Source: Promethearchaeota archaeon
Lineage (GTDB): Archaea > Asgardarchaeota > Lokiarchaeia > Sigyniarchaeales > SOKP01
Length of the DNA: 45,557 bases
Assembly (NCBI GenBank): GCA_011364925.1
Contig: RDOA01000024.1
Span: 1-45,557 of the forward strand
Reading direction: 5' to 3'
Shown: piece after piece, positions 23,062 to 33,604 of the stretch
Layout: each line of letters opens with the position of its first letter
Numbering within the stretch: the stretch's first letter is position 1
Position numbers and translations under genes: made by a program
Notes under the pieces: generated by a model
Databases searched by the model: none
Seen by the model: only the letters and a program-made list of their open reading frames with translations
Told to the model about the DNA's origin: nothing

Positions 23062-23709
23062 TCAAATATATAAACTATTAGTTTCTCTTTGGTACTTAAT
23101 TTTGCCTAATTGAAGCAAATGCAATAAATAAACAAATTTTTCGTAAATGTTTATTTGATCAATTTCATTTTCGAACACTTCTTCAAAATTACAGGGAAGT
23201 ATGTTCTTAATTTCCTCAAAAAATTCGTTAACTTTCTCAGTGAATTTAAGCTTTGGGATTTCTAATAAAAATTGGTAGTCACTTTTCTCTTTATCCAAAT
23301 GTTCAATCGCAAAATCTAAATCTTTCTCTTTACAGAAACGATCTAAAGCGTATTCTAAAAAATTGTAAGATAAAGGTTCTATTTCAAAATTAAAATTCCA
23401 GCAACCAGTAAAAATATCGTACATTTCTTTTTCATTTGGGTTTTTTTTCATAAATTCAATAAATCTCTTTTCAATATCTAATGAATTAAGCAGATTCCTC
23501 AATTCCTCGAATTTACGGTCTAATAGTTCACATACATTAATGAAACTTTTAGAGTAATTCTTAATATTGAAAGTGTTAAGTGAATCCTTTATGTCGCTGA
23601 ATATTGGCAATAATTCAAATTCTAATAAGTTAATTTTACCTAAAAGAACTTCTTCTTTAATATCTTCAATTTTTTTGTTAATCTTTTCTGAAAAATCGAT
23701 TTCTTCCAC
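23062..23709 (-). CDS. Kleisin (ScpA/Nse4-like)
   Basis: N-terminal 'VLLGKINLLEFEL' (cf. ScpA 'GEIDPWDIDI') and C-terminal wH 'EKFVYLLHLLQLGKIKYQ'; starts 2 nt after the SMC stop. Confidence 0.75.
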   Translation of the reverse strand: MEEIDFSEKINKKIEDIKEEVLLGKINLLEFELLPIFSDIKDSLNTFNIKNYSKSFINVCELLDRKFEELRNLLNSLDIEKRFIEFMKKNPNEKEMYDIFTGCWNFNFEIEPLSYNFLEYALDRFCKEKDLDFAIEHLDKEKSDYQFLLEIPKLKFTEKVNEFFEEIKNILPCNFEEVFENEIDQINIYEKFVYLLHLLQLGKIKYQRETNSLYI

Positions 23710-23711
23710 AA

Positions 23712-26700
23712 TTAATTCTCTTTTATAATTTTCGGTTTAAATATAGTAGACACTTCTTTTTTCCCCACTCTCGCAACCCCTATTAGTTTATCTGCAAGAG
23801 AGTACAATGCATTTGAAGATTTTGGGAGGAACATCAATAATTGTATAGAATTTTCTTCTAAAGTTGATTTTATCATTTCATACGAGGCTTCTGAATTCTT
23901 GTCGTCTAAAAACATACCTGCCTCGTCAAACATACATAATGGTGAAGGGTTAATTTCCTGCAGAGATAAAATTAAGCTGATTGAAATCATTGAAATTTGA
24001 CCTCCACTTAATGCAGTACAGGATTTTAATTGGTCTTTTGAAATCGCAGCTTTAATGTCTACACCCAATTCTTCAAAATCGCCTATTAACTCAAGAGTAC
24101 AATACGCCTTAATATTGGCAGAGCTAAATTTTTGGTTGATTTTAGAATTTAACTTCTTAAGAACTAATTGAAACTTATTGAAATATGTTGTTTCTAGTTT
24201 TTTTTCTGTCTTAATAGCTTCTTTTATATCTTGTTCTATATCGTTCTGATTTTTTGTGATTTCTTTTAAACCTGTGATGATTTGTTCTTTTTCTAATAAA
24301 AGTGAATCGTCCACATCTAAATAATTTAGAAGTTTTTTATCAATTTTTAATATATCTTGATTGATTTCTTCAATTGGTCGAATAACTATTTCCTCTTCTA
24401 TAATAAGCTTACCAATCTCTGAAATTATGCGCTTTAAATCAACTTTCTTCATTCCTAATTCGTGTTGTATTGAAGATTGCTTGAAGATTTCTTGCTCTAA
24501 CCTAATTTTTACTTGAATGTGAACTTTTTCAATCTCACTCTTTTCTTTTTGAATGTTAAATTTTTTTCCTTGCAATTCAGAGATGCTTGAATTAATAGAG
24601 TGAATGCCATCCTCCACATTCTCTAAGCGTCTATAAATTTCAAATGCTTTTTTATCTGAATTTTGAAATGCAGACTTTTTCTCATTGTAGTTCGCTTTAA
24701 TTGTTTTTAAATTACTTTCATTAGAATTGATATGAGTATTGATATCTTTTAGCGATTCTAAATGTTCGTTTAATTTATTTTCCCATTTCTTCAATTCTAC
24801 ATTTGTATTAGTTAATTCGTTTGGAATTTCCTTGATTCTTTTGTTCCAACTAAAGAATTCGGGCTCTTTCTGAGATTCGAAATCTTCGATTTTAGTCGAA
24901 AGTAAGTTGAGTTTTTCTTTAAATTCTATGTTTCTTTGTTCTAATGAATAAATATTATCATATAATTGATTTTTCTTTGAAGTTAATCTTTCTTTTTGTT
25001 TGAAATTAAACAAAAGGTCAGTAAACGATTCTTTTTTTCTAAATATCTCGCTCTGCGTCTTGTCATATTTAGCCTGGTTGACCTTTAGTTCTAATATCCT
25101 ATCATTTAACGAGTTAATCTCTCTTTCCAATAGTTCAGATTGTTCTTTTTGAGTACCTGGACTTAACAACCCTTTAAGCCGTTTTATATGGGGGCTTTCA
25201 TACGCATATTTATACGATATAATCTGTTTACCTTCTAAAGTAACACATTTCCCCTTGAAAGCGTTTGTTTTATAGAGTTCTTTTGCGCTAATATTATCCT
25301 TAACCACAAGACAGTTTTTAATTTTTGAATAGATAACTTTCTGAACATTCACATTGTTATTAATAATTTTAATTAACTCTACTAAGTAACCTATTACTCC
25401 AGAGGCCGTAATTTTTGGATAGGGAGTAATGTTGACCTTCTTTGGGATGTAAATATTACAATACGCATTATATTTCTTTTTTAACCTCTCTAGTAAATAT
25501 AAAGTGTCCCAGTCACTAACAATAAAACTATTGAGTAAGCGTTCTCCTAAAACCGATTCAATCGCGTAACTCAATTCGTCATTATAATTTAAATATTCGA
25601 TGATCGGACCTATTACCCGATCCTCTAATTCTCTTTTCTTAATTTCCTCTTTTAGAATGCTAATATTAGGCGACAAAACGATTCTACGTTCTCTTAATGC
25701 CATTTGCAGCGTTTTAAACTTTTGCATCTTTTTCGATTTTTCGTACCCTAATCGCTCGATTTCAGTTCCACATTTTAAAATGTTAACAGTAATACTCTTT
25801 AGATCCTTATCTAATTGTTTTAATAAATCGTTAGATGGATTTTCTAAGAACCATTTATTTTTTTCTAATTTATGATTGATGTCCATCAAACTCTGGAATA
25901 TATCGTTAATATCTTTTTTAGTGTTTTCAATGCTGTTTTCATTCTCTTTGACACTTTTTTTGTGTCCTTCTCTTTCATTGATCAACTCGTTATATTTCGC
26001 TAAGAATTCTTCATTCTCCTTAATTATCCTTATAAGATCGTTTTGTTCCTCAATAAGTTTGTCAATTTTACTCTTTACAATTTGCTTTTTATTTTTTACT
26101 AATTTGATTTCTTCATCGAACTTTTTTTTTTGGGCTTTAATTTTTTTTAATAAATTCTCTTGTTCAGAGATTTTTACTGATATTTCATCCAATTCTTGCT
26201 TTGCAATAATTTTCTCTTTTTGCCATGTGTCAATTTTTTTTATTAATTCGTTTTTCTTATATTCTAACTCGCCTATTTTTTTTGATAGGGTGTTCAGATC
26301 GCTATCAATATCAACTACCACTTTTTCTTTCTCTAAAATTAAGTTTCGATAATTATCAACCTCATTAGTAATTGAATCTATTTTTTTTTGGCTTTCCTGG
26401 AATGATATCTCGAGATTTTCAATCTCTTTTTCTAATAAATCTCTATTAGCCCATAATAATTCGTCCGTGAACTTTTTTCTCACACCCAATAGTTCTTTTT
26501 TCTCGTTTAATCTTTCTAATTTTGGTGTTAATAAATCCAAGTTGAAATTTAATGTGTTTTTTCTCGTTACTAATGATCGAAGTTCAGTGTCTAAAGATAA
26601 TACTCCATACTTTTGTTGAAGTATCTCCTCTCTTAGTCCCTTTAGCCCTATACCCTCTTCTAAGAAAGAACACAGCTCAAAAGGTTTCAAGCTCTTGATG

Positions 26701-27203
26701 GCATCGATTTTACCTTGACTCACAAATGCGAATTGGTTGTCTGGATTAATTTTTAACTCATTTACCAGTTTTTGAATTTCATTAACATGGATTTTCTTAA
26801 AATCTGGGTCATGTTCGCGTTGAATTTCAAAAAAAGGGGATTTTCCTCTTATTACTGTCCTTCGAACTTTTACAATCTCACCATAATGTTGAATATGAAG
26901 CTCGACCATAGCGTGATCTTGGTCATTTCTAATGAAATCCGACCACTTTTTATATCTTTCATCTCTCTCATTGCTTCCCAAAGCGAATTTAATTGCTTGG
27001 AAAATTGATGTTTTTCCACTCCAATTCGGTCCAATGATTAAAATAAACCTAGGAAATTCTTTTTTTTGTGGTATTGAAAAATCAATTTCGTCTCTTTGGA
27101 AAGATAAAAAGTTTTCTAAAAGAACTTTGCGAAGGAATGTATCCTTTTCCATTATTTGATTCTTCGAAACTTTTTTTTCTTTATTTTTAGACGAAATTGC
27201 CAT
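23712..27203 (-). CDS. smc: SMC ATPase, Smc5/6-like
   Basis: Walker A GPNWSGKT, Q-loop 'NPDNQFAFVSQG', two long coiled coils, hinge 'VIGPIIEYL..AIESVLG..LNSFIV', signature LSGGQ, Walker B/D-loop 'SPLCMFDEAGMFLD'; AGGTGA RBS. Confidence 0.9.
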   Translation of the reverse strand: MAISSKNKEKKVSKNQIMEKDTFLRKVLLENFLSFQRDEIDFSIPQKKEFPRFILIIGPNWSGKTSIFQAIKFALGSNERDERYKKWSDFIRNDQDHAMVELHIQHYGEIVKVRRTVIRGKSPFFEIQREHDPDFKKIHVNEIQKLVNELKINPDNQFAFVSQGKIDAIKSLKPFELCSFLEEGIGLKGLREEILQQKYGVLSLDTELRSLVTRKNTLNFNLDLLTPKLERLNEKKELLGVRKKFTDELLWANRDLLEKEIENLEISFQESQKKIDSITNEVDNYRNLILEKEKVVVDIDSDLNTLSKKIGELEYKKNELIKKIDTWQKEKIIAKQELDEISVKISEQENLLKKIKAQKKKFDEEIKLVKNKKQIVKSKIDKLIEEQNDLIRIIKENEEFLAKYNELINEREGHKKSVKENENSIENTKKDINDIFQSLMDINHKLEKNKWFLENPSNDLLKQLDKDLKSITVNILKCGTEIERLGYEKSKKMQKFKTLQMALRERRIVLSPNISILKEEIKKRELEDRVIGPIIEYLNYNDELSYAIESVLGERLLNSFIVSDWDTLYLLERLKKKYNAYCNIYIPKKVNITPYPKITASGVIGYLVELIKIINNNVNVQKVIYSKIKNCLVVKDNISAKELYKTNAFKGKCVTLEGKQIISYKYAYESPHIKRLKGLLSPGTQKEQSELLEREINSLNDRILELKVNQAKYDKTQSEIFRKKESFTDLLFNFKQKERLTSKKNQLYDNIYSLEQRNIEFKEKLNLLSTKIEDFESQKEPEFFSWNKRIKEIPNELTNTNVELKKWENKLNEHLESLKDINTHINSNESNLKTIKANYNEKKSAFQNSDKKAFEIYRRLENVEDGIHSINSSISELQGKKFNIQKEKSEIEKVHIQVKIRLEQEIFKQSSIQHELGMKKVDLKRIISEIGKLIIEEEIVIRPIEEINQDILKIDKKLLNYLDVDDSLLLEKEQIITGLKEITKNQNDIEQDIKEAIKTEKKLETTYFNKFQLVLKKLNSKINQKFSSANIKAYCTLELIGDFEELGVDIKAAISKDQLKSCTALSGGQISMISISLILSLQEINPSPLCMFDEAGMFLDDKNSEASYEMIKSTLEENSIQLLMFLPKSSNALYSLADKLIGVARVGKKEVSTIFKPKIIKEN

Positions 27204-27224
27204 TCTTCTTCACCTAATTTGGCA

Positions 27225-28478
27225 TCATTTCCCAAATGCTCGTTTTAAATTATCTACGCGTTTTTTTGCTTTTTCTAAGTTAACTTGAGCCATTTTAGGG
27301 CTATCGTTTAAAATGAATGCGTATTGCGCAATTAACTTTCTATCATTTTCTTCCAACTTCTCTTGCTTATTTAACTTATCAATAACGAGTATTAATTCGC
27401 TATAATTTTTCGAAACTGCATTTTCGTATAGTTGATCGCGCATAAATTCAGAAAATCTTTCCTCTTTTATCATATTGAGCAGTTCAGTTGAAATGGTACT
27501 TTCCGAACTCTCACTCTTTCCTTTTTTGAAAGCTTTATTTTGTACTTTTTGATTCTCATCAACATCATTATACAATAATTTCTGTTCTCCTTGTTCTCGT
27601 GAAATGGAAGGAATATATTCTCCTGATTCTATTAAATCAATCAATATATCTGTAATTTCGTTGCTAGAGTCGTTTAACTCAGAATTAAGAAACTGCTTAA
27701 AGATACCAATTTTTAATAATTGATTAATGTCTTTCACTTCCCATTTATCTGTATATTCCACCAGGGTTTTAATTTCAAACGAAATTTTTGGATTTTTCTC
27801 AGCAAAGTTTCTGAAAATGGTTTCCCTCTCAATTTTGTCAAGTAAAGGGATTTTTATAAATAGATCAAAAACTTCAAAGATTAATCTCGAATTTACTTCG
27901 ATCTCTTTGATATTGTTGTTAATCCAGATGAATAATAAACCCGCTTTGATCATCATCTTCTTGTCTTTGACCGATGTCATAAATAATTCCAAAAGGTTTC
28001 TCTTGTATGGTTGTATGTTAGAAAAATTCTCTTGGTTAATTAAGAATATTCCCCCAATTTTACCTTCTCCTTGTTGTTCCTCTGTTGTTTGAGAACTTTT
28101 TTTATGAGACTCCTCAAATTGAATCAAAGAGTCCAAAATGAATGAAAAGTTGTTGTAAAACTCATCGGGGGTTTTAATTATCTCTTCATGATTCAGTTCA
28201 TAAAAGTTTAAATAATAATTTTTAGAAATTAGCTTTAAATAATCAACTACATCTGTTCCTACACTAATATTAATGATAATAGCTCCGTTTGGTTGAATAA
28301 ACTTGTTATAACTCTGTACGATTGTTTCTTCGTGGTTAGTTAACATTATTTTCAGATAGTTAATAATATCGTTATACTTATCGCGATAAAAAATCTCCTC
28401 CCTATCAATTTCAATTTCATTAGGTGTAATTATCCGATAGTACTTAGAAAGATCAATATCGTTATCTATATCTGCCAT
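27225..28478 (-). CDS. Degenerate (probably ATPase-dead) classic AAA+ domain protein
   Basis: Looks like a CDC48/FtsH-type AAA scaffold ('PNGAIIINISVGTD', 'FYELN', 'FDLFIKIPLLDKIERETIF', 'LVEYTDKWEVKDINQL') but lacks GKT, DE and the Arg finger. Confidence 0.62.
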   Translation of the reverse strand: MADIDNDIDLSKYYRIITPNEIEIDREEIFYRDKYNDIINYLKIMLTNHEETIVQSYNKFIQPNGAIIINISVGTDVVDYLKLISKNYYLNFYELNHEEIIKTPDEFYNNFSFILDSLIQFEESHKKSSQTTEEQQGEGKIGGIFLINQENFSNIQPYKRNLLELFMTSVKDKKMMIKAGLLFIWINNNIKEIEVNSRLIFEVFDLFIKIPLLDKIERETIFRNFAEKNPKISFEIKTLVEYTDKWEVKDINQLLKIGIFKQFLNSELNDSSNEITDILIDLIESGEYIPSISREQGEQKLLYNDVDENQKVQNKAFKKGKSESSESTISTELLNMIKEERFSEFMRDQLYENAVSKNYSELILVIDKLNKQEKLEENDRKLIAQYAFILNDSPKMAQVNLEKAKKRVDNLKRAFGK

Positions 28479-28834: not shown

Positions 28835-29233
28835 TTAAAGCGATAAAATTTCATTAAGGATTTCTAAATTTTGGTCTACTTCTTCCCTAAACAAGTGATA
28901 ATAAGTGAATTTTTGTTTTTTATACCCCTGTATAATGCCAGCTGCGACTAATTTTCTTAAATGATGAGATATGGTAGATTGGGACTTATTTAAAATGGCT
29001 TCTAATTCACAAACGCACCTATCTTGATCCTTTAAAGCTTTTATTATGATTAATCGCTCCTTAGATGAAATCGCAGATGTAAACCTTTCAATCGTATTTA
29101 AATTTGTATTTTCTTCTAAATTATTTCCCAATTTTAATAAATTTTCAAATACAATATCTGAATTTGATAGATTTCTACAAGAGCATAACTTTTTTTTTAT
29201 TTCTAATGTTTTTCTTTGTGTTATAAGAACCAC
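28835..29233 (-). CDS. arsR: ArsR/SmtB family metalloregulator
   Basis: RLIII, DRCVCEL (As-binding CVC), SQSTISHHL; extra N-terminal CSC; divergent from acr3. Start codon uncertain. Confidence 0.9.
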   Translation of the reverse strand: MVLITQRKTLEIKKKLCSCRNLSNSDIVFENLLKLGNNLEENTNLNTIERFTSAISSKERLIIIKALKDQDRCVCELEAILNKSQSTISHHLRKLVAAGIIQGYKKQKFTYYHLFREEVDQNLEILNEILSL

Positions 29234-29270: not shown

Positions 29271-29344
29271 AATGTATCGATAAATATAAATCTATAGCAT
29301 TTAAAGCTTTACATTCATACAAATCGATAAGTATAAATATGAAT
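29271..29344. promoter_or_regulatory. Probable ArsR operator region of the divergent promoter
   Basis: Two 16-nt near-identical boxes, ATCGATAAATATAAAT (29276-29291) and ATCGATAAGTATAAAT (29323-29338); the second is flanked by the inverted repeat ATTCATA/TATGAAT. Confidence 0.65.
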
Positions 29345-29390: not shown

Positions 29391-30494
29391 GTGGTAGAAG
29401 AAGATATTGAGTATAAAACTATTCATAATGTAAATAAAGCGGAAGAGGAAAAACAACAATCAAGGAAGATCAATTACTTTGAGAAATTGCTTCCAATTTG
29501 GGTAGTGTTATGTATTGTTTTAGGGATAGTTCTTTCTCAATTTGTCCCAGAAATAAGTGAAACCATAAATTCGTTACAAATAGGGAGTATATCCATTCCA
29601 ATCGGTATTTGTCTATTTCTCATGATGTATCCTGCAATGTTGAATTTACAAGGTTCGGAATTAAAGAAATTAGGTCGAAATCCAAAACCTATAATCTTAA
29701 CGCTTGTATCAAACTGGCTCGTGGCTCCCTTTGTAGGTTTGGCAATGGTCAATATTTTTTTACCCGGCACTACCGAAGATATAGAGCAATTAAAGGTAGC
29801 AATAATCCTTCTCTCAAGTTCTCCGTGTACCGCAATGGTTTTAGTATGGGGTTGGATGGCAAAAGGAAATCAAGAGCAAAATGTTGTTAATACCAGTGTA
29901 AACACTATAACGATTATTTTCCTATATGTTGGCATGGTTTCATTATTGACAGGTATTCAAAATATTTCTATTGATCCTTGGTTGTTACTGATTTCTTTAG
30001 TCTTCTTCATAGGAATCCCACTATTGTTAGGAATTTTAAGTAAAAAACTTATTGTCTCCTCAAAGGGATTGAATTGGTTTAATGATAAGTATAAACCATT
30101 TGTTGGTAAAATTTCAATAATCGCATTATTGACGACCCTCGTAGTTTTATTTTCATTAAATGGAGATGTATTAATACATAATCCAGATTTACTTTTGATA
30201 GTCTCAATTCCTCTCTTAGTTGGTTTTGTAATTGTAGTTGGCTACAATGTTTTTGTTACAAAGATCTTCAAATTGAGGTACAGAGAGGCAGTCATTACAG
30301 TTATTATAGGATCTTCAAGCCATTTTGAAATTGCTATCGCAACTGCTATAGCTATATATGGCATTGGTTCAGTCGCAGCATTGGGAACAACAATGGGACT
30401 CTTCTGGGAAGTACCAGTGATGTTATCAATTGTATATTTAGGAAAATATCTTGGAAAACGGGGTTTTTGGAAATCATACCCTTCTTCAAAATAA
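29391..30494 (+). CDS. acr3: ACR3 family arsenite efflux transporter
   Basis: LFLMMYP, NWLVAP, catalytic SPCTAMVLVW, SSHFEIAIATAIAIYG, LFWEVPVM; about 10 TM helices. Confidence 0.93.
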   Translation: MVEEDIEYKTIHNVNKAEEEKQQSRKINYFEKLLPIWVVLCIVLGIVLSQFVPEISETINSLQIGSISIPIGICLFLMMYPAMLNLQGSELKKLGRNPKPIILTLVSNWLVAPFVGLAMVNIFLPGTTEDIEQLKVAIILLSSSPCTAMVLVWGWMAKGNQEQNVVNTSVNTITIIFLYVGMVSLLTGIQNISIDPWLLLISLVFFIGIPLLLGILSKKLIVSSKGLNWFNDKYKPFVGKISIIALLTTLVVLFSLNGDVLIHNPDLLLIVSIPLLVGFVIVVGYNVFVTKIFKLRYREAVITVIIGSSSHFEIAIATAIAIYGIGSVAALGTTMGLFWEVPVMLSIVYLGKYLGKRGFWKSYPSSK

Positions 30495-30521: not shown

Positions 30522-32189
30522 ATGGCAGTCGTATATATGCGTAAATTAGAGCAAGAACCTGATACCTACGATGAAAAATTTACAGCATTGACAAAAGGGG
30601 TAAATTTAGAGGTAAGACAATGGATTCTTGATCGAATTGGAACATCCAATTCTATCTTAGAACTAGGATGTGGAACAGGAAATTTCGCCACCCAAATGGC
30701 ATTTCAACAAAATAATGTCTTAGCTGTTGATATTAATTTTCAAATGATAAATTATGCTATGCAGAATTATCCTTCTGATTTAAAAGGTGGGACTCTTGTC
30801 TACCAAACTGGTTCCTTTACTAACATGCCAGTTGACGAGAACTCCCAAGATCTAATAGTCAGTACTTTTATGCTTTCTGAACTCCGTCCTTTCGAGCAGC
30901 AAATATTCCTTAGAAACGCTTGGAAGGTCCTAAAACCGAACGGTCGTTTAATTTTGGCAGCTGAATTTGTACCAAATGGATTCTGGAAATTCATATTTAA
31001 GATTAAAAGATGGAGATATAAGAAAAAACTTAGAAGACTCAAATTAAGAAGCACATTTCTCTTGAAATGGTTTTTCAATTATATCGAACCAATAGGATTT
31101 AAGATAAAAGCCAGGAAAGCTTGGAAGCATGGAACTATTCAAGCTCTTGAACTAGTTAAAACAGAAGATCAAGGAAAAAGCGAACCCGGATATTACAGAC
31201 CTGCACCTAAAAAATACAAGGGATTAATCTCACAGTTAAGAATATATCGATGCATCTATACTGGACAAATTGATCTCGTTCCTATAGACCCCGGTCTTTA
31301 TAAATCCGGAACTCCTGACGAGAAATCACCAGTAATAGTTACCGCAAATTATGAGTTTACATTTATAAAAGTAATGAGAAATCTAAAAGGTCTTGACGCT
31401 TGGGTCTTATGTGTTGACTCTAATGGGATAAATGTATGGTGTGCCGCAAGAGGAAACGACTTTGGGAACAATCAATTAATTGAAGCCGTTGAGGCTACGG
31501 GATTAGAGAATATTACTGAAAGAAAGTCCTTGATTCTTCCACAATTATCTGCGGGCGGTGTGGCTACACCAGAATTACAAAAGAAATCCAAAAATTTCCC
31601 ATTTCGAGTAGTATTTGGACCAATATGGTCCAAAGATTTACCAGAATTTATAAACAATAGACCTGCTCGAAAGCCGGACAAGATGAAACTTGCTAAATTC
31701 ACGCTAAAACATAGGTTCCGCGCATTTATTACTCATACAACTTTTCTAATTAGAAAAATATTCGCACTCCCCTTAATTGCGCTGTTTTTAATTTCACTTG
31801 TCCTAAGTTTATTTGGTTTATTCGATAAATTGTGGTGGGCTGGTGAACTCTTACTATGGATTATTCTTTCAAACTTTTTAATAACATTTTTACTCCCCCT
31901 ATCTAAGTTTACGCGGAGATTCATATATAAGGGAATATTCTTTGGTATATTAAACACTCTTGCTTTGGGAGCTTTGACCTATTTTCTGCATAATTCGATT
32001 CTTTACATCCTTTGGAACATCGCCTTCTTATTTTGGGTTTCATTTTTTTCTACTATGTCTTTGAGCGGTTATACAATGGATACAAGTCCAAGAGAAATTC
32101 AAGAAGAATATCCAATTTTTAGAATTATAAATATGGTCTTGTTAGCAATTAGTTTAATTTCGATGGTAGTAGGAATTATTCTACTGTAA
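30522..32189 (+). CDS. Fusion of a class I SAM-dependent methyltransferase and an HgcA-like corrinoid-binding/membrane protein
   Basis: N-terminal ILELGCGTG, AVDIN, DLIVSTFMLSEL. Central PGLYKSGTPDEKSPVIVTANY, GINVWCAARG (nt 31431-31448 for NVWCAA), LILPQLSAGGV, FGPI. About 5 C-terminal TM helices. Confidence 0.88.
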   Translation: MAVVYMRKLEQEPDTYDEKFTALTKGVNLEVRQWILDRIGTSNSILELGCGTGNFATQMAFQQNNVLAVDINFQMINYAMQNYPSDLKGGTLVYQTGSFTNMPVDENSQDLIVSTFMLSELRPFEQQIFLRNAWKVLKPNGRLILAAEFVPNGFWKFIFKIKRWRYKKKLRRLKLRSTFLLKWFFNYIEPIGFKIKARKAWKHGTIQALELVKTEDQGKSEPGYYRPAPKKYKGLISQLRIYRCIYTGQIDLVPIDPGLYKSGTPDEKSPVIVTANYEFTFIKVMRNLKGLDAWVLCVDSNGINVWCAARGNDFGNNQLIEAVEATGLENITERKSLILPQLSAGGVATPELQKKSKNFPFRVVFGPIWSKDLPEFINNRPARKPDKMKLAKFTLKHRFRAFITHTTFLIRKIFALPLIALFLISLVLSLFGLFDKLWWAGELLLWIILSNFLITFLLPLSKFTRRFIYKGIFFGILNTLALGALTYFLHNSILYILWNIAFLFWVSFFSTMSLSGYTMDTSPREIQEEYPIFRIINMVLLAISLISMVVGIILL

Positions 32190-32242: not shown

Positions 32243-32602
32243 ATGACAGAATCGGAATTTAAAAGAAGTTTAGAAAGTTTATCAATTAAAGATTTTAAAA
32301 TCTTTATAAATGAAGAAAAATGCAATGGTTGCGGATTGTGCGGCGAAGTATGCCCCTTTGGGCTTCCACAACCTCTCGATAACGGAAAATACGATATCCC
32401 AAATCCAAAACTTTGTACTGAGTGTAGTGCTTGTAAACGTAACTGTCCCGTGGATGCTATAATTATGAACGAGAATAAGGGATGCGGGTGCCTATGGAAC
32501 GCGAGAGCAAAAGCTAAAAATACAAGATCAGGTAATAAAGATATTAACAGCTGTGCTTGTGGTACTGAAGGGAATGAATCAAATACAAGTTGTTGTGGCT
32601 AA
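32243..32602 (+). CDS. HgcB-like 2[4Fe-4S] ferredoxin with Cys-rich tail
   Basis: CNGCGLCGEVCP and CTECSACKRNCP, then GCGC, CAC and terminal CCG; immediately downstream of the hgcA-like gene; GAGGT RBS. Confidence 0.85.
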   Translation: MTESEFKRSLESLSIKDFKIFINEEKCNGCGLCGEVCPFGLPQPLDNGKYDIPNPKLCTECSACKRNCPVDAIIMNENKGCGCLWNARAKAKNTRSGNKDINSCACGTEGNESNTSCCG

Positions 32603-32661: not shown

Positions 32662-33060
32662 ATGGTTAAAGAAGATATAAATGTTGAAGTAAGAGATGAT
32701 CGTAATCCACCAGCAAGTTCTTGCTGTGAAAATTCAACTGTAGAGAAAAAAGCTGAGATCGGGAGCCTTGAATTATCAGAAGAAAAAACAAAAGACAATA
32801 ATAAGCTTTATGTTGATGTATATGTTCCGTTAAACGCTTGCGAATGTGTTTGGTCTCAATTTATGAACCTTGTGTTTACTGCACTTGCTCCCTATATGAA
32901 ATACATTAAATTTGAAACGAAAAACTTAGATTCTGAAGAAGCACATAAGCTTAACCTAACAGGTAATTGTGTAGTAGTTGATGGTAAAAAGAAATTTATA
33001 ACATCCTTCGCTTTAAAAAAAGAATTACCTAATCTTCTTAAAGAAAAAGGATTATTATAA
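32662..33060 (+). CDS. Cys-rich thioredoxin/ArsD-like putative metallochaperone
   Basis: SSCC in a disordered N-terminus, 'DVYVPLNACEC' after a beta-strand, 'CVVVDGK' hairpin typical of the thioredoxin fold. Confidence 0.55.
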   Translation: MVKEDINVEVRDDRNPPASSCCENSTVEKKAEIGSLELSEEKTKDNNKLYVDVYVPLNACECVWSQFMNLVFTALAPYMKYIKFETKNLDSEEAHKLNLTGNCVVVDGKKKFITSFALKKELPNLLKEKGLL

Positions 33061-33101: not shown

Positions 33102-33443
33102 ATTAAAAAAGTAAAAATAACAATCTTTGGACCTGAAAAGGCACTCGCTAACGGAGTTGAATATAATGTAGAAATAAACGATGATGGAACTATAATCAAC
33201 GCCTTAGCTACTATTGATAAAGAGTTGGTTCAAAACCCTGAGAAATCACTATTTCCTATGTATAAAGGTTTAATTCAGAGTTATCTCCAGCTGATTTGGG
33301 ATCCCCAAAAAAATGTAATTTACGAAGATTGCGCTAGTAACGCTTACGGGCCTAACAAAGAATTTATACCGCTGTTAGATGATGTCAATTTTAATCTCTA
33401 TCCGGATAGCGAGATTACTTTAATTGTACACGCTGATTGATGA
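33102..33443 (+). CDS. Candidate selenoprotein with beta-grasp (MoaD/ubiquitin-like) fold; non-canonical ATT start
   Basis: The frame of the tracked ORF 33225-33440 is open upstream to ATT 33102 (IKKVKITIFGPEKALANGVEYNVEINDDGTIINALATIDKE), with GGTGA at 33091-33095. It ends ...SEITLIVHAD-TGA-TGA, and a SECIS-like hairpin lies at 33569. Confidence 0.6.
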
Positions 33444-33568
33444 GCTGATAACATGCGAGAGCGATTAGATTTTGGAACATTTAAACGAATTATTATGAAA
33501 AGCTACGGAAAAGAACACAAAACTTTTGCTCATTATTTCGTGCAGAAACTGAACCCGAATAAGTGAGA

Positions 33569-33604
33569 ATGACATCTTTCAAAAAATATTAGTGAAAGAT
33601 TGAC
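33569..33604 (+). promoter_or_regulatory. Eukaryote-type (Lokiarchaeal) SECIS-like element
   Basis: ATGAC-ATCTTTCA-AAAAATATTAG-TGAAAGAT-TGAC: AUGA/GA non-Watson-Crick core, perfect 8-bp helix, A-run on the 5' side of the apical loop. Confidence 0.65.

Follow-up and report, generated by a model that had tools for sequence, protein, structure and literature searches.

A methyltransferase domain, an HgcA-like corrinoid-binding domain and a membrane domain are joined in a single protein of a Promethearchaeota archaeon, encoded in the 45,557-nucleotide stretch of DNA analysed here (the window). This fusion is a third lineage of the HgcA family and is HgcA-like rather than canonical HgcA. Its gene lies between those for an Acr3 arsenite efflux permease and an HgcB-like ferredoxin, next to a divergent arsR and upstream of a candidate selenoprotein, a context that the original prediction overlooked and that points to arsenic rather than mercury. 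With a confidence slightly short of an even chance, we propose that the protein may be a membrane-bound corrinoid methyltransferase that loads itself, is induced by arsenite and acts on a trivalent metalloid. As(III) is the likeliest one, although Sb(III) is not separable from it. Both acceptors are suggested because of the gene context.

Architecture and conserved residues of the fusion protein

The fusion ORF (30522-32189, + strand) translates into 555 aa with no internal stop, and Pfam, NCBIfam, AlphaFold2 and hydropathy agree on the order first read from it, i.e., methyltransferase, corrinoid domain and transmembrane (TM) bundle. The N-terminal CpaM-like class I SAM methyltransferase domain (30522-31166, +; about aa 1-215) matches Pfam Methyltransf_11 over aa 46-145 (E 5e-17). 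Among NCBIfam families, CpaM (NF043040) is the best match for aa 3-210, ahead of other methyltransferase families by about 80 bits; the suspected resemblance to CpaM holds to this extent, at a score below the cut-off of the family (130.9 vs 180 bits). Motif I (ELGCGTG; G49, G51 and G53), D70 and D110 are invariant in an alignment of 37 homologues, and a joint alignment shows that the domain shares the invariant class I SAM residues with CpaM. It holds a single Cys, as do the corresponding domains of 111 of 120 homologues.

The HgcA-like corrinoid-binding domain (31224-31700, +; about aa 235-393) was delimited with Pfam CdhD, NF040863 and profile alignment. Pfam CdhD (PF03599) matches aa 235-344 (E 1e-15), and aa 255-549 score 190.9 bits against HgcA NF040863 (cut-off 275), a model on which a positive control reached 424 bits. 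The scores against the HgcAB-like family NF043039 (183.5 bits, cut-off 285), CdhE (71.3 bits, cut-off 306) and ArsM NF008823 (38.5 bits, cut-off 263) are also below the cut-offs. Profile alignment to canonical HgcA gave a probability of 100 at 32% identity with the cap motifs aligned, placing Cys307 (codon 31440-31442) of the cap-helix motif NVWCAARG (31431-31454, +) on the cobalt-ligating Cys of HgcA; by this alignment, Cys307 would ligate cobalt. The cap residues N304-G311 are invariant in the 37 aligned homologues, and the query shares NVWCAARG with each of the 120 top homologues, with no match to the canonical N(V/I)WCA(A/G)GK motif. The replacement of GK by RG with retention of the Cys, first noticed in this one protein, is therefore a feature of all of them.

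The five-helix HgcA-type TM domain (31704-32189, +) was identified from the AlphaFold2 model, profile alignment and hydropathy, with five TM segments in the hydropathy profile and five C-terminal helices in the model. Three parts are visible in this model (mean pLDDT 76, pTM 0.69), which resembles the HgcAB model 9a0b more than any other PDB fold; the cap-helix stretch has a pLDDT below 50 in this cofactor-free prediction.

An assembly artefact or chance read-through, the danger foreseen for such a fusion, is ruled out by its recurrence. The junction is crossed in frame without a stop in 102 of 151 genomes sampled from the class, and 95 of the matches are nearly complete. Among these genomes is that of the cultured Promethearchaeum syntrophicum MK-D1, which is closed and in which arsR, acr3 and the ferredoxin accompany the fusion (WP_147664869.1). 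A protein search returned 411 relatives, the best 120 of which are near full length, at least 63% identical and from Asgard archaea where named. Similarly, 43 loci from GTDB genomes all belong to Asgard or unnamed archaea except one labelled Nanopelagicaceae. On this contig (Candidatus Nanopelagicaceae bacterium), the genes follow the Asgard order in full, at 79% identity; it is probably misbinned, since its flanking genes are the same as those of the Asgard loci.

Position in the HgcA family and partnership with CpaM

A maximum-likelihood tree of the corrinoid and TM regions (45 rows, LG+G4), with canonical HgcA rows picked by motif rather than tested activity and two CdhE rows as root, separated canonical HgcA (100/97), the RG fusions (100/98) and the CdhE outgroup (100/100) into clades of their own. 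HgcAB-like proteins, triple fusions and some other fusions form a further clade (99/94), separate from the RG fusion clade. The sister of the fusion clade was canonical HgcA in a quick tree (support 46) and the other CpaM-partnered lineages in a careful tree (80/49), so any branching order among the HgcA-family clades is tentative. The assignment to HgcA in the original prediction is thus narrowed: the protein is HgcA-like and lies outside the canonical clade. Its corrinoid domain groups with HgcA-like proteins and not with CdhD/E, an identity that is ruled out by the low CdhE score and the separate CdhE clade; the true CdhE of this genome is encoded elsewhere. In the available part of an earlier study, Asgard sequences appear solely as a clade in the fused-HgcAB subtree (PMC10083202).

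At 29 of the best 30 Asgard CpaM loci, CpaM is joined to an HgcA-like gene or lies beside one, and the remaining locus ends at a contig edge. No CpaM-level match was found at 80 canonical hgcA loci (490 kb, with only 26 loci of at least 8 kb), where the best score was 66 bits vs at least 177 bits in fusion loci, and none was found in viral contigs. A profile search of 1.84 billion representatives recovered more CpaM-HgcA-like fusions, from Hodarchaeales, Heimdallarchaeota and an Anaerolineae-labelled protein, as well as triple CpaM-HgcA-HgcB fusions; some of these proteins have already been named CpaM or HgcAB-like by NCBI. The triple fusions occupy at least three places in the tree, suggesting that the modules fuse and split repeatedly.

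The proposed pairing of the methyltransferase with a corrinoid protein is real, and it is already curated, as NCBIfam names NF043040 "corrinoid protein-associated methyltransferase". It also occurs unfused in the same genome, where contig C77 carries a cpaM and HgcAB-like pair (L046:750-2529) with the cap NVWCGACG; both proteins exceed their cut-offs, the stand-alone CpaM paralogue with 250 bits vs 180. A second unfused pair, likewise above both cut-offs, is present in MK-D1, and neither ars genes nor the operator motif described below (scores up to 8.7 bits) were found near these paralogous loci. Complex prediction for the unfused CpaM and HgcAB-like pair scored 0.54 (best control 0.00), with at least 70% agreement of contacts and a partner pLDDT of at least 77. 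The mark for a complex was reached by 58 of 80 solved and 2 of 110 mismatched pairs, with only 7 solved pairs and both mismatches at or below 0.60, and passes at such scores are more often wrong than right unless the complex is likely beforehand; the support is weak. Combined with the invariant SAM motifs, this weak support suggests the CpaM-like domain as the SAM site.

The arsenite-efflux operon and its predicted regulation

The operon runs acr3, fusion, ferredoxin, CxC protein and TGA-TGA protein, followed by a SECIS-like hairpin, and arsR is divergent; the first five genes are separated by gaps of 27-59 bases. The ArsR/SmtB repressor (28835-29233, -; Pfam HTH_5 E 2e-17; NF033788 68.3 bits, cut-off 55) has an N-terminal CxC and a CVC motif, and its Cys motifs are conserved. 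The Acr3 arsenite efflux permease (29391-30494, +) reaches 273.7 bits on TIGR00832 (cut-off 282.8), retains the PCTAM Cys motif and is the one acr3 match in this genome (3.9 Mb).

The HgcB-like 2x[4Fe-4S] ferredoxin (32243-32602, +) possesses the clusters, the Cys73-equivalent and the terminal Cys of HgcB, with a score below the cut-off (NF040864, 48.8 vs 99 bits) and one extra Cys. Its Cys81 lies 13 residues past the last cluster Cys, a spacing shared with Cys73 of HgcB, and a Cys pair is present at the C-terminus. The extra Cys83 completes a GCGC (CxC) motif that is invariant in 25 of 25 ferredoxins, in contrast to a single Cys in 64 of 64 canonical HgcB. Cys73 and the terminal Cys pair of HgcB are needed to methylate Hg (PMC7305189). 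With the cap-helix Cys, the five-helix TM domain, the Cys73-equivalent spacing and the C-terminal Cys pair, the fusion system has counterparts of all residues known to be necessary for this reaction, and canonical hgcAB is also flanked by acr3, arsC, arsM and arsR (PMC7438021); the fusion might thus be a functional mercury methylase equivalent to HgcA, making Lokiarchaeia unrecognised methylmercury producers. We regard this as quite improbable, considering the position outside the canonical clade, the scores below the HgcA and HgcB cut-offs, RG instead of GK in the cap, and the fused HgcAB of P. furiosus, a tested non-canonical relative that made no methylmercury (PMC4646819). In addition, mer genes are not among the recurring neighbours. 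Searches for canonical HgcA in the 151 class genomes and for MerB in this genome and MK-D1 gave no match, a negative without weight because their controls gave none either. A side activity of the fusion on Hg is possible.

Next in the operon, a Cys-rich protein with a conserved CxC (32662-33060, +) has no Pfam or NCBIfam match, and its Atlas neighbours are thioredoxin-like at 0.81-0.88, a weak lead. It is followed by a putative Sec-Sec selenoprotein (33102-33566, +; start probably ATT), also without a Pfam or NCBIfam match, whose reading frame contains TGA twice (33438-33443). At the same position, TGA ends each of the 24 homologous ORFs examined, TGA-TGA appearing as DUU, CUU or UGUU, and about 35-40 residues past it are conserved in the homologues. 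A eukaryote-type SECIS-like hairpin (ATGA...AAAA...GA; 33569-33604, +) is conserved behind the homologues, with a folding z-score of -1.5 that is weak alone. The strict SECIS pattern has 5 matches in the genome, of which two lie behind VhuD/MvhD-like frames and one behind a TGA-containing frame with a UxxC motif. The candidate selenoprotein trails acr3, arsM or arsC even in fusion-less genomes. A survey of the Asgard selenoproteome covers seven known families, and its available part names none like the TGA-TGA protein (PMC11227280).

Across the 43 loci, the ferredoxin is directly downstream of the fusion in 35, with arsR in 25, acr3 in 23, the CxC protein in 20, the TGA protein in 20, arsC in 4 and an arsM-like gene in 4; DUF166 also recurs in fusion loci. 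An SMC-like 1163-aa ATPase with 215-aa and 417-aa neighbours (23062-28478, -) forms an upstream flank conserved in about 20 loci. A small Cys-rich DUF2769 protein is encoded downstream of arsR in another locus (L001:6469-6723) and in 7-9 more; the window has no such ORF of at least 50 aa. In 47 of the 95 genomes that carry acr3 as well as the fusion, the two lie no more than 6 kb apart; these 47 come from 7 genera and 2 families and include MK-D1 (29/30 in the genus of the window, 4/4 in the MK-D1 genus and 5/38 in the largest other genus), although the relatedness of these genomes overstates their independence. That roughly every second fusion locus has no acr3 beside it speaks against the metalloid reading.

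A shared upstream motif supports the metalloid reading. A weight matrix derived from 21 sites that precede acr3- or DUF166-led operons describes a putative ArsR operator, an imperfect palindrome with the consensus TTCAAAT-N12-ATTTGAA. Its site at 29318-29343 (+), conserved in related loci, is the best in the 3.9-Mb genome (26.9 vs 19.7 bits for the next), this locus being part of the training set. Upstream of 8 fusion-first loci with acr3 elsewhere, most of which still adjoin a divergent arsR, the motif reaches 20.5-23.6 bits (shuffled sequences: 99th percentile 11.3, maximum 16.0). Of 20 distant acr3 regions, 16 carry it at 16-29 bits. In five genomes, it occurs at both the separated fusion and acr3 regions. 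It is absent from MarR-led loci and several distant fusion loci, which likewise counts against the metalloid reading. A MarR with three conserved Cys pairs (CC, CxC and CC) replaces ArsR in about a quarter of the fusion loci and is reminiscent of the Cys-dependent As/Sb-sensing MarR proteins known to exist (10.1101/2021.08.12.456183). One such gene (L040:7208-7672) and nine similar loci have their own upstream palindrome-like motif, and in a further locus MarR leads arsM, DUF166, fusion and ferredoxin.

These contexts also bear on the idea that the CpaM/HgcA-like module methylates a non-metal acceptor (e.g., a membrane lipid, quinone or thiol) and that the ars linkage in Lokiarchaeia reflects secondary regulatory recruitment. 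The paralogous cpaM-hgcAB-like locus, with the same modules but without ars genes or operator, fits this idea, as do the Hodarchaeales and Anaerolineae-type fusions, which lack ars neighbours in the loci examined, the RG-clade loci without a nearby acr3, and an essential TM domain pointing to a membrane process. The RG clade, however, has a separate ferredoxin with a multi-Cys tail that is missing from the fused HgcAB-like paralogues, the operator is retained after separation from acr3, and all cassette neighbours are Cys- or Sec-rich; a non-metal acceptor is therefore improbable in our judgement.

ArsM methylates As(III) directly from SAM and requires several Cys. In three fusion-less genomes, the cassette reads acr3, arsM and TGA protein, and three others show the same arsM-after-acr3 arrangement in part, suggesting that arsM takes the slot of the fusion. 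In one locus, arsM and the fusion both follow acr3. Mutual exclusion of the two genes is ruled out by their free co-occurrence in 31 genomes, arsM being present in 31 of 102 fusion genomes vs 15 of 49 fusion-less genomes; no ArsM match was found in this genome or MK-D1. The class I fold, the weak ArsM match and the ars operon could be taken to mean that the methyltransferase domain alone is an ArsM-like enzyme, merely co-localised with the corrinoid part. With one Cys, the fused domain cannot work as ArsM, and its resemblance to CpaM, a family linked to HgcA-like genes almost throughout, is much greater, so this explanation is very improbable.

Proposed function and comparison with known systems

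For the methylation of As(III) or Sb(III), the two [4Fe-4S] clusters of the ferredoxin would reduce the bound corrinoid to Co(I), to which the fused CpaM-like domain, binding SAM, would offer a methyl group, with Cys307 ligating the resulting methyl-Co(III). The ferredoxin GCGC and terminal Cys pair may bind the metalloid in a thiolate complex and carry it to cobalt, where the methyl would be handed over in radical or carbanion form, in line with the proposal for Hg in HgcAB. ArsR would bind the operator and de-repress the operon together with Acr3. The SAM-to-Co(I) transfer and the cobalt-thiolate bond are known from HgcAB and would apply here by analogy. With purified HgcAB, Co(I) receives its methyl group from SAM, methyl-Co(III) is ligated by the Cys thiolate and the electrons come from HgcB, with no need for a separate methyltransferase (PMC11588087). 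SAM as the methyl donor, which the fusion had been thought to reveal, is hence corroborated by it, having already been established in vitro for HgcAB. Methylcobalamin can also methylate As(III) non-enzymatically in the presence of thiols (review PMC6950371). CobS was found in neither this genome nor MK-D1, and thus cobamide must be scavenged. MK-D1 has no CdhE above the cut-off, yet two HgcA-family corrinoid systems are retained.

The ars linkage is no proof of an arsenic substrate, since canonical hgcAB is ars-flanked as well and, although arsenic-induced, its deletion in ND132 leaves the mutant as As(III)-resistant as the wild type (10.1101/2022.10.17.512643). A costly corrinoid route beside the direct ArsM route is unexplained and also counts against the metalloid reading. 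The protein could instead be an arsenic-linked non-methylase, in which the Co(I) corrinoid reduces As(V) or methylarsenicals, demethylates or forms a hydride, with the SAM domain serving just to return oxidised cobalt to activity, as methionine synthase does. SAM-dependent reactivation is established for MetH, the ars linkage would be the same, the cassette has no arsC, and the presence of arsM alongside the fusion in 31 genomes suggests a different step. Moreover, loss of hgcAB in ND132 raises sensitivity to As(V), not As(III) (10.1101/2022.10.17.512643), and HgcAB can dehalogenate halomethanes (preprint 10.64898/2026.04.26.720869). We nonetheless consider a reductive or C-As-cleaving role unlikely, because SAM is a catalytic methyl donor in HgcAB (PMC11588087), a dedicated ferredoxin and a strictly kept SAM domain fit a methylation that consumes two electrons per turnover, and arsM takes the same operon slot in fusion-less relatives.

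NCBIfam already covers the individual modules and how they pair, and SAM as the donor is published (PMC11588087). In an incomplete literature library, we found no paper on the clade of methyltransferase-HgcA-like fusions or on its ars regulon or selenoprotein, nor one on CpaM with corrinoid or on hgcA-like genes with Asgard archaea. Taken jointly, these features might mean that corrinoid-dependent, ArsM-independent As/Sb methylation is common in Lokiarchaeia and linked to an unlisted Sec-Sec cassette, that the CpaM partnership is ancestral in the HgcA family, and that Hg methylation and SAM use are a derived side activity of a metalloid-methylating enzyme; this reading is doubtful as a whole. 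A sister clade that bears a SAM domain touches on both the native function of HgcAB and its SAM binding mode. A widespread clade in an arsenite-efflux regulon, together with the cultured MK-D1, makes the arsenic hypothesis directly testable. If the fusion methylates arsenic, methylarsenicals would have a second enzymatic origin in anoxic sediments, in which Lokiarchaeia are often found. Fusion genes should not be counted as mercury methylators in hgcA surveys until tested; if they do methylate Hg, current surveys miss them.

HgcA/HgcB of Pseudodesulfovibrio mercurii ND132 shares with the fusion system the corrinoid domain with a cap-helix Cys, the five TM helices, a separate downstream 2x[4Fe-4S] ferredoxin with the Cys73-equivalent and terminal Cys pair, the ArsR/ars neighbourhood and SAM as the likely donor. 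The fusion system differs from it in the N-terminal SAM methyltransferase, the NVWCAARG cap, the ferredoxin GCGC in place of a single Cys, and its own clade below both cut-offs (NF040863 and NF040864). CdhE/AcsC, the corrinoid iron-sulfur protein's large subunit, has a homologous PF03599 corrinoid-binding domain but is soluble, with neither a cap Cys nor a TM domain. ArsM (NF008823) is likewise SAM-dependent and occupies the same operon slot after acr3 in relatives, whereas it has several As-binding Cys and no corrinoid, in contrast to the one Cys and sub-cut-off ArsM score of the fused domain. CpaM and HgcAB-like proteins (NF043040/NF043039) comprise the same three modules, occurring as pairs, CpaM-HgcA-like fusions and triple fusions. 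In the pairs, the ferredoxin is fused to the HgcA-like part, whereas in the fusion system it is the methyltransferase that is joined to it, and the separate ferredoxin bears a Cys-rich tail that the HgcAB-like paralogues lack. Both domains of the fusion fall below the cut-offs of these families and the protein forms a separate clade, and among the CpaM-partnered lineages compared, ars genes and the operator occur only in the RG fusion clade.
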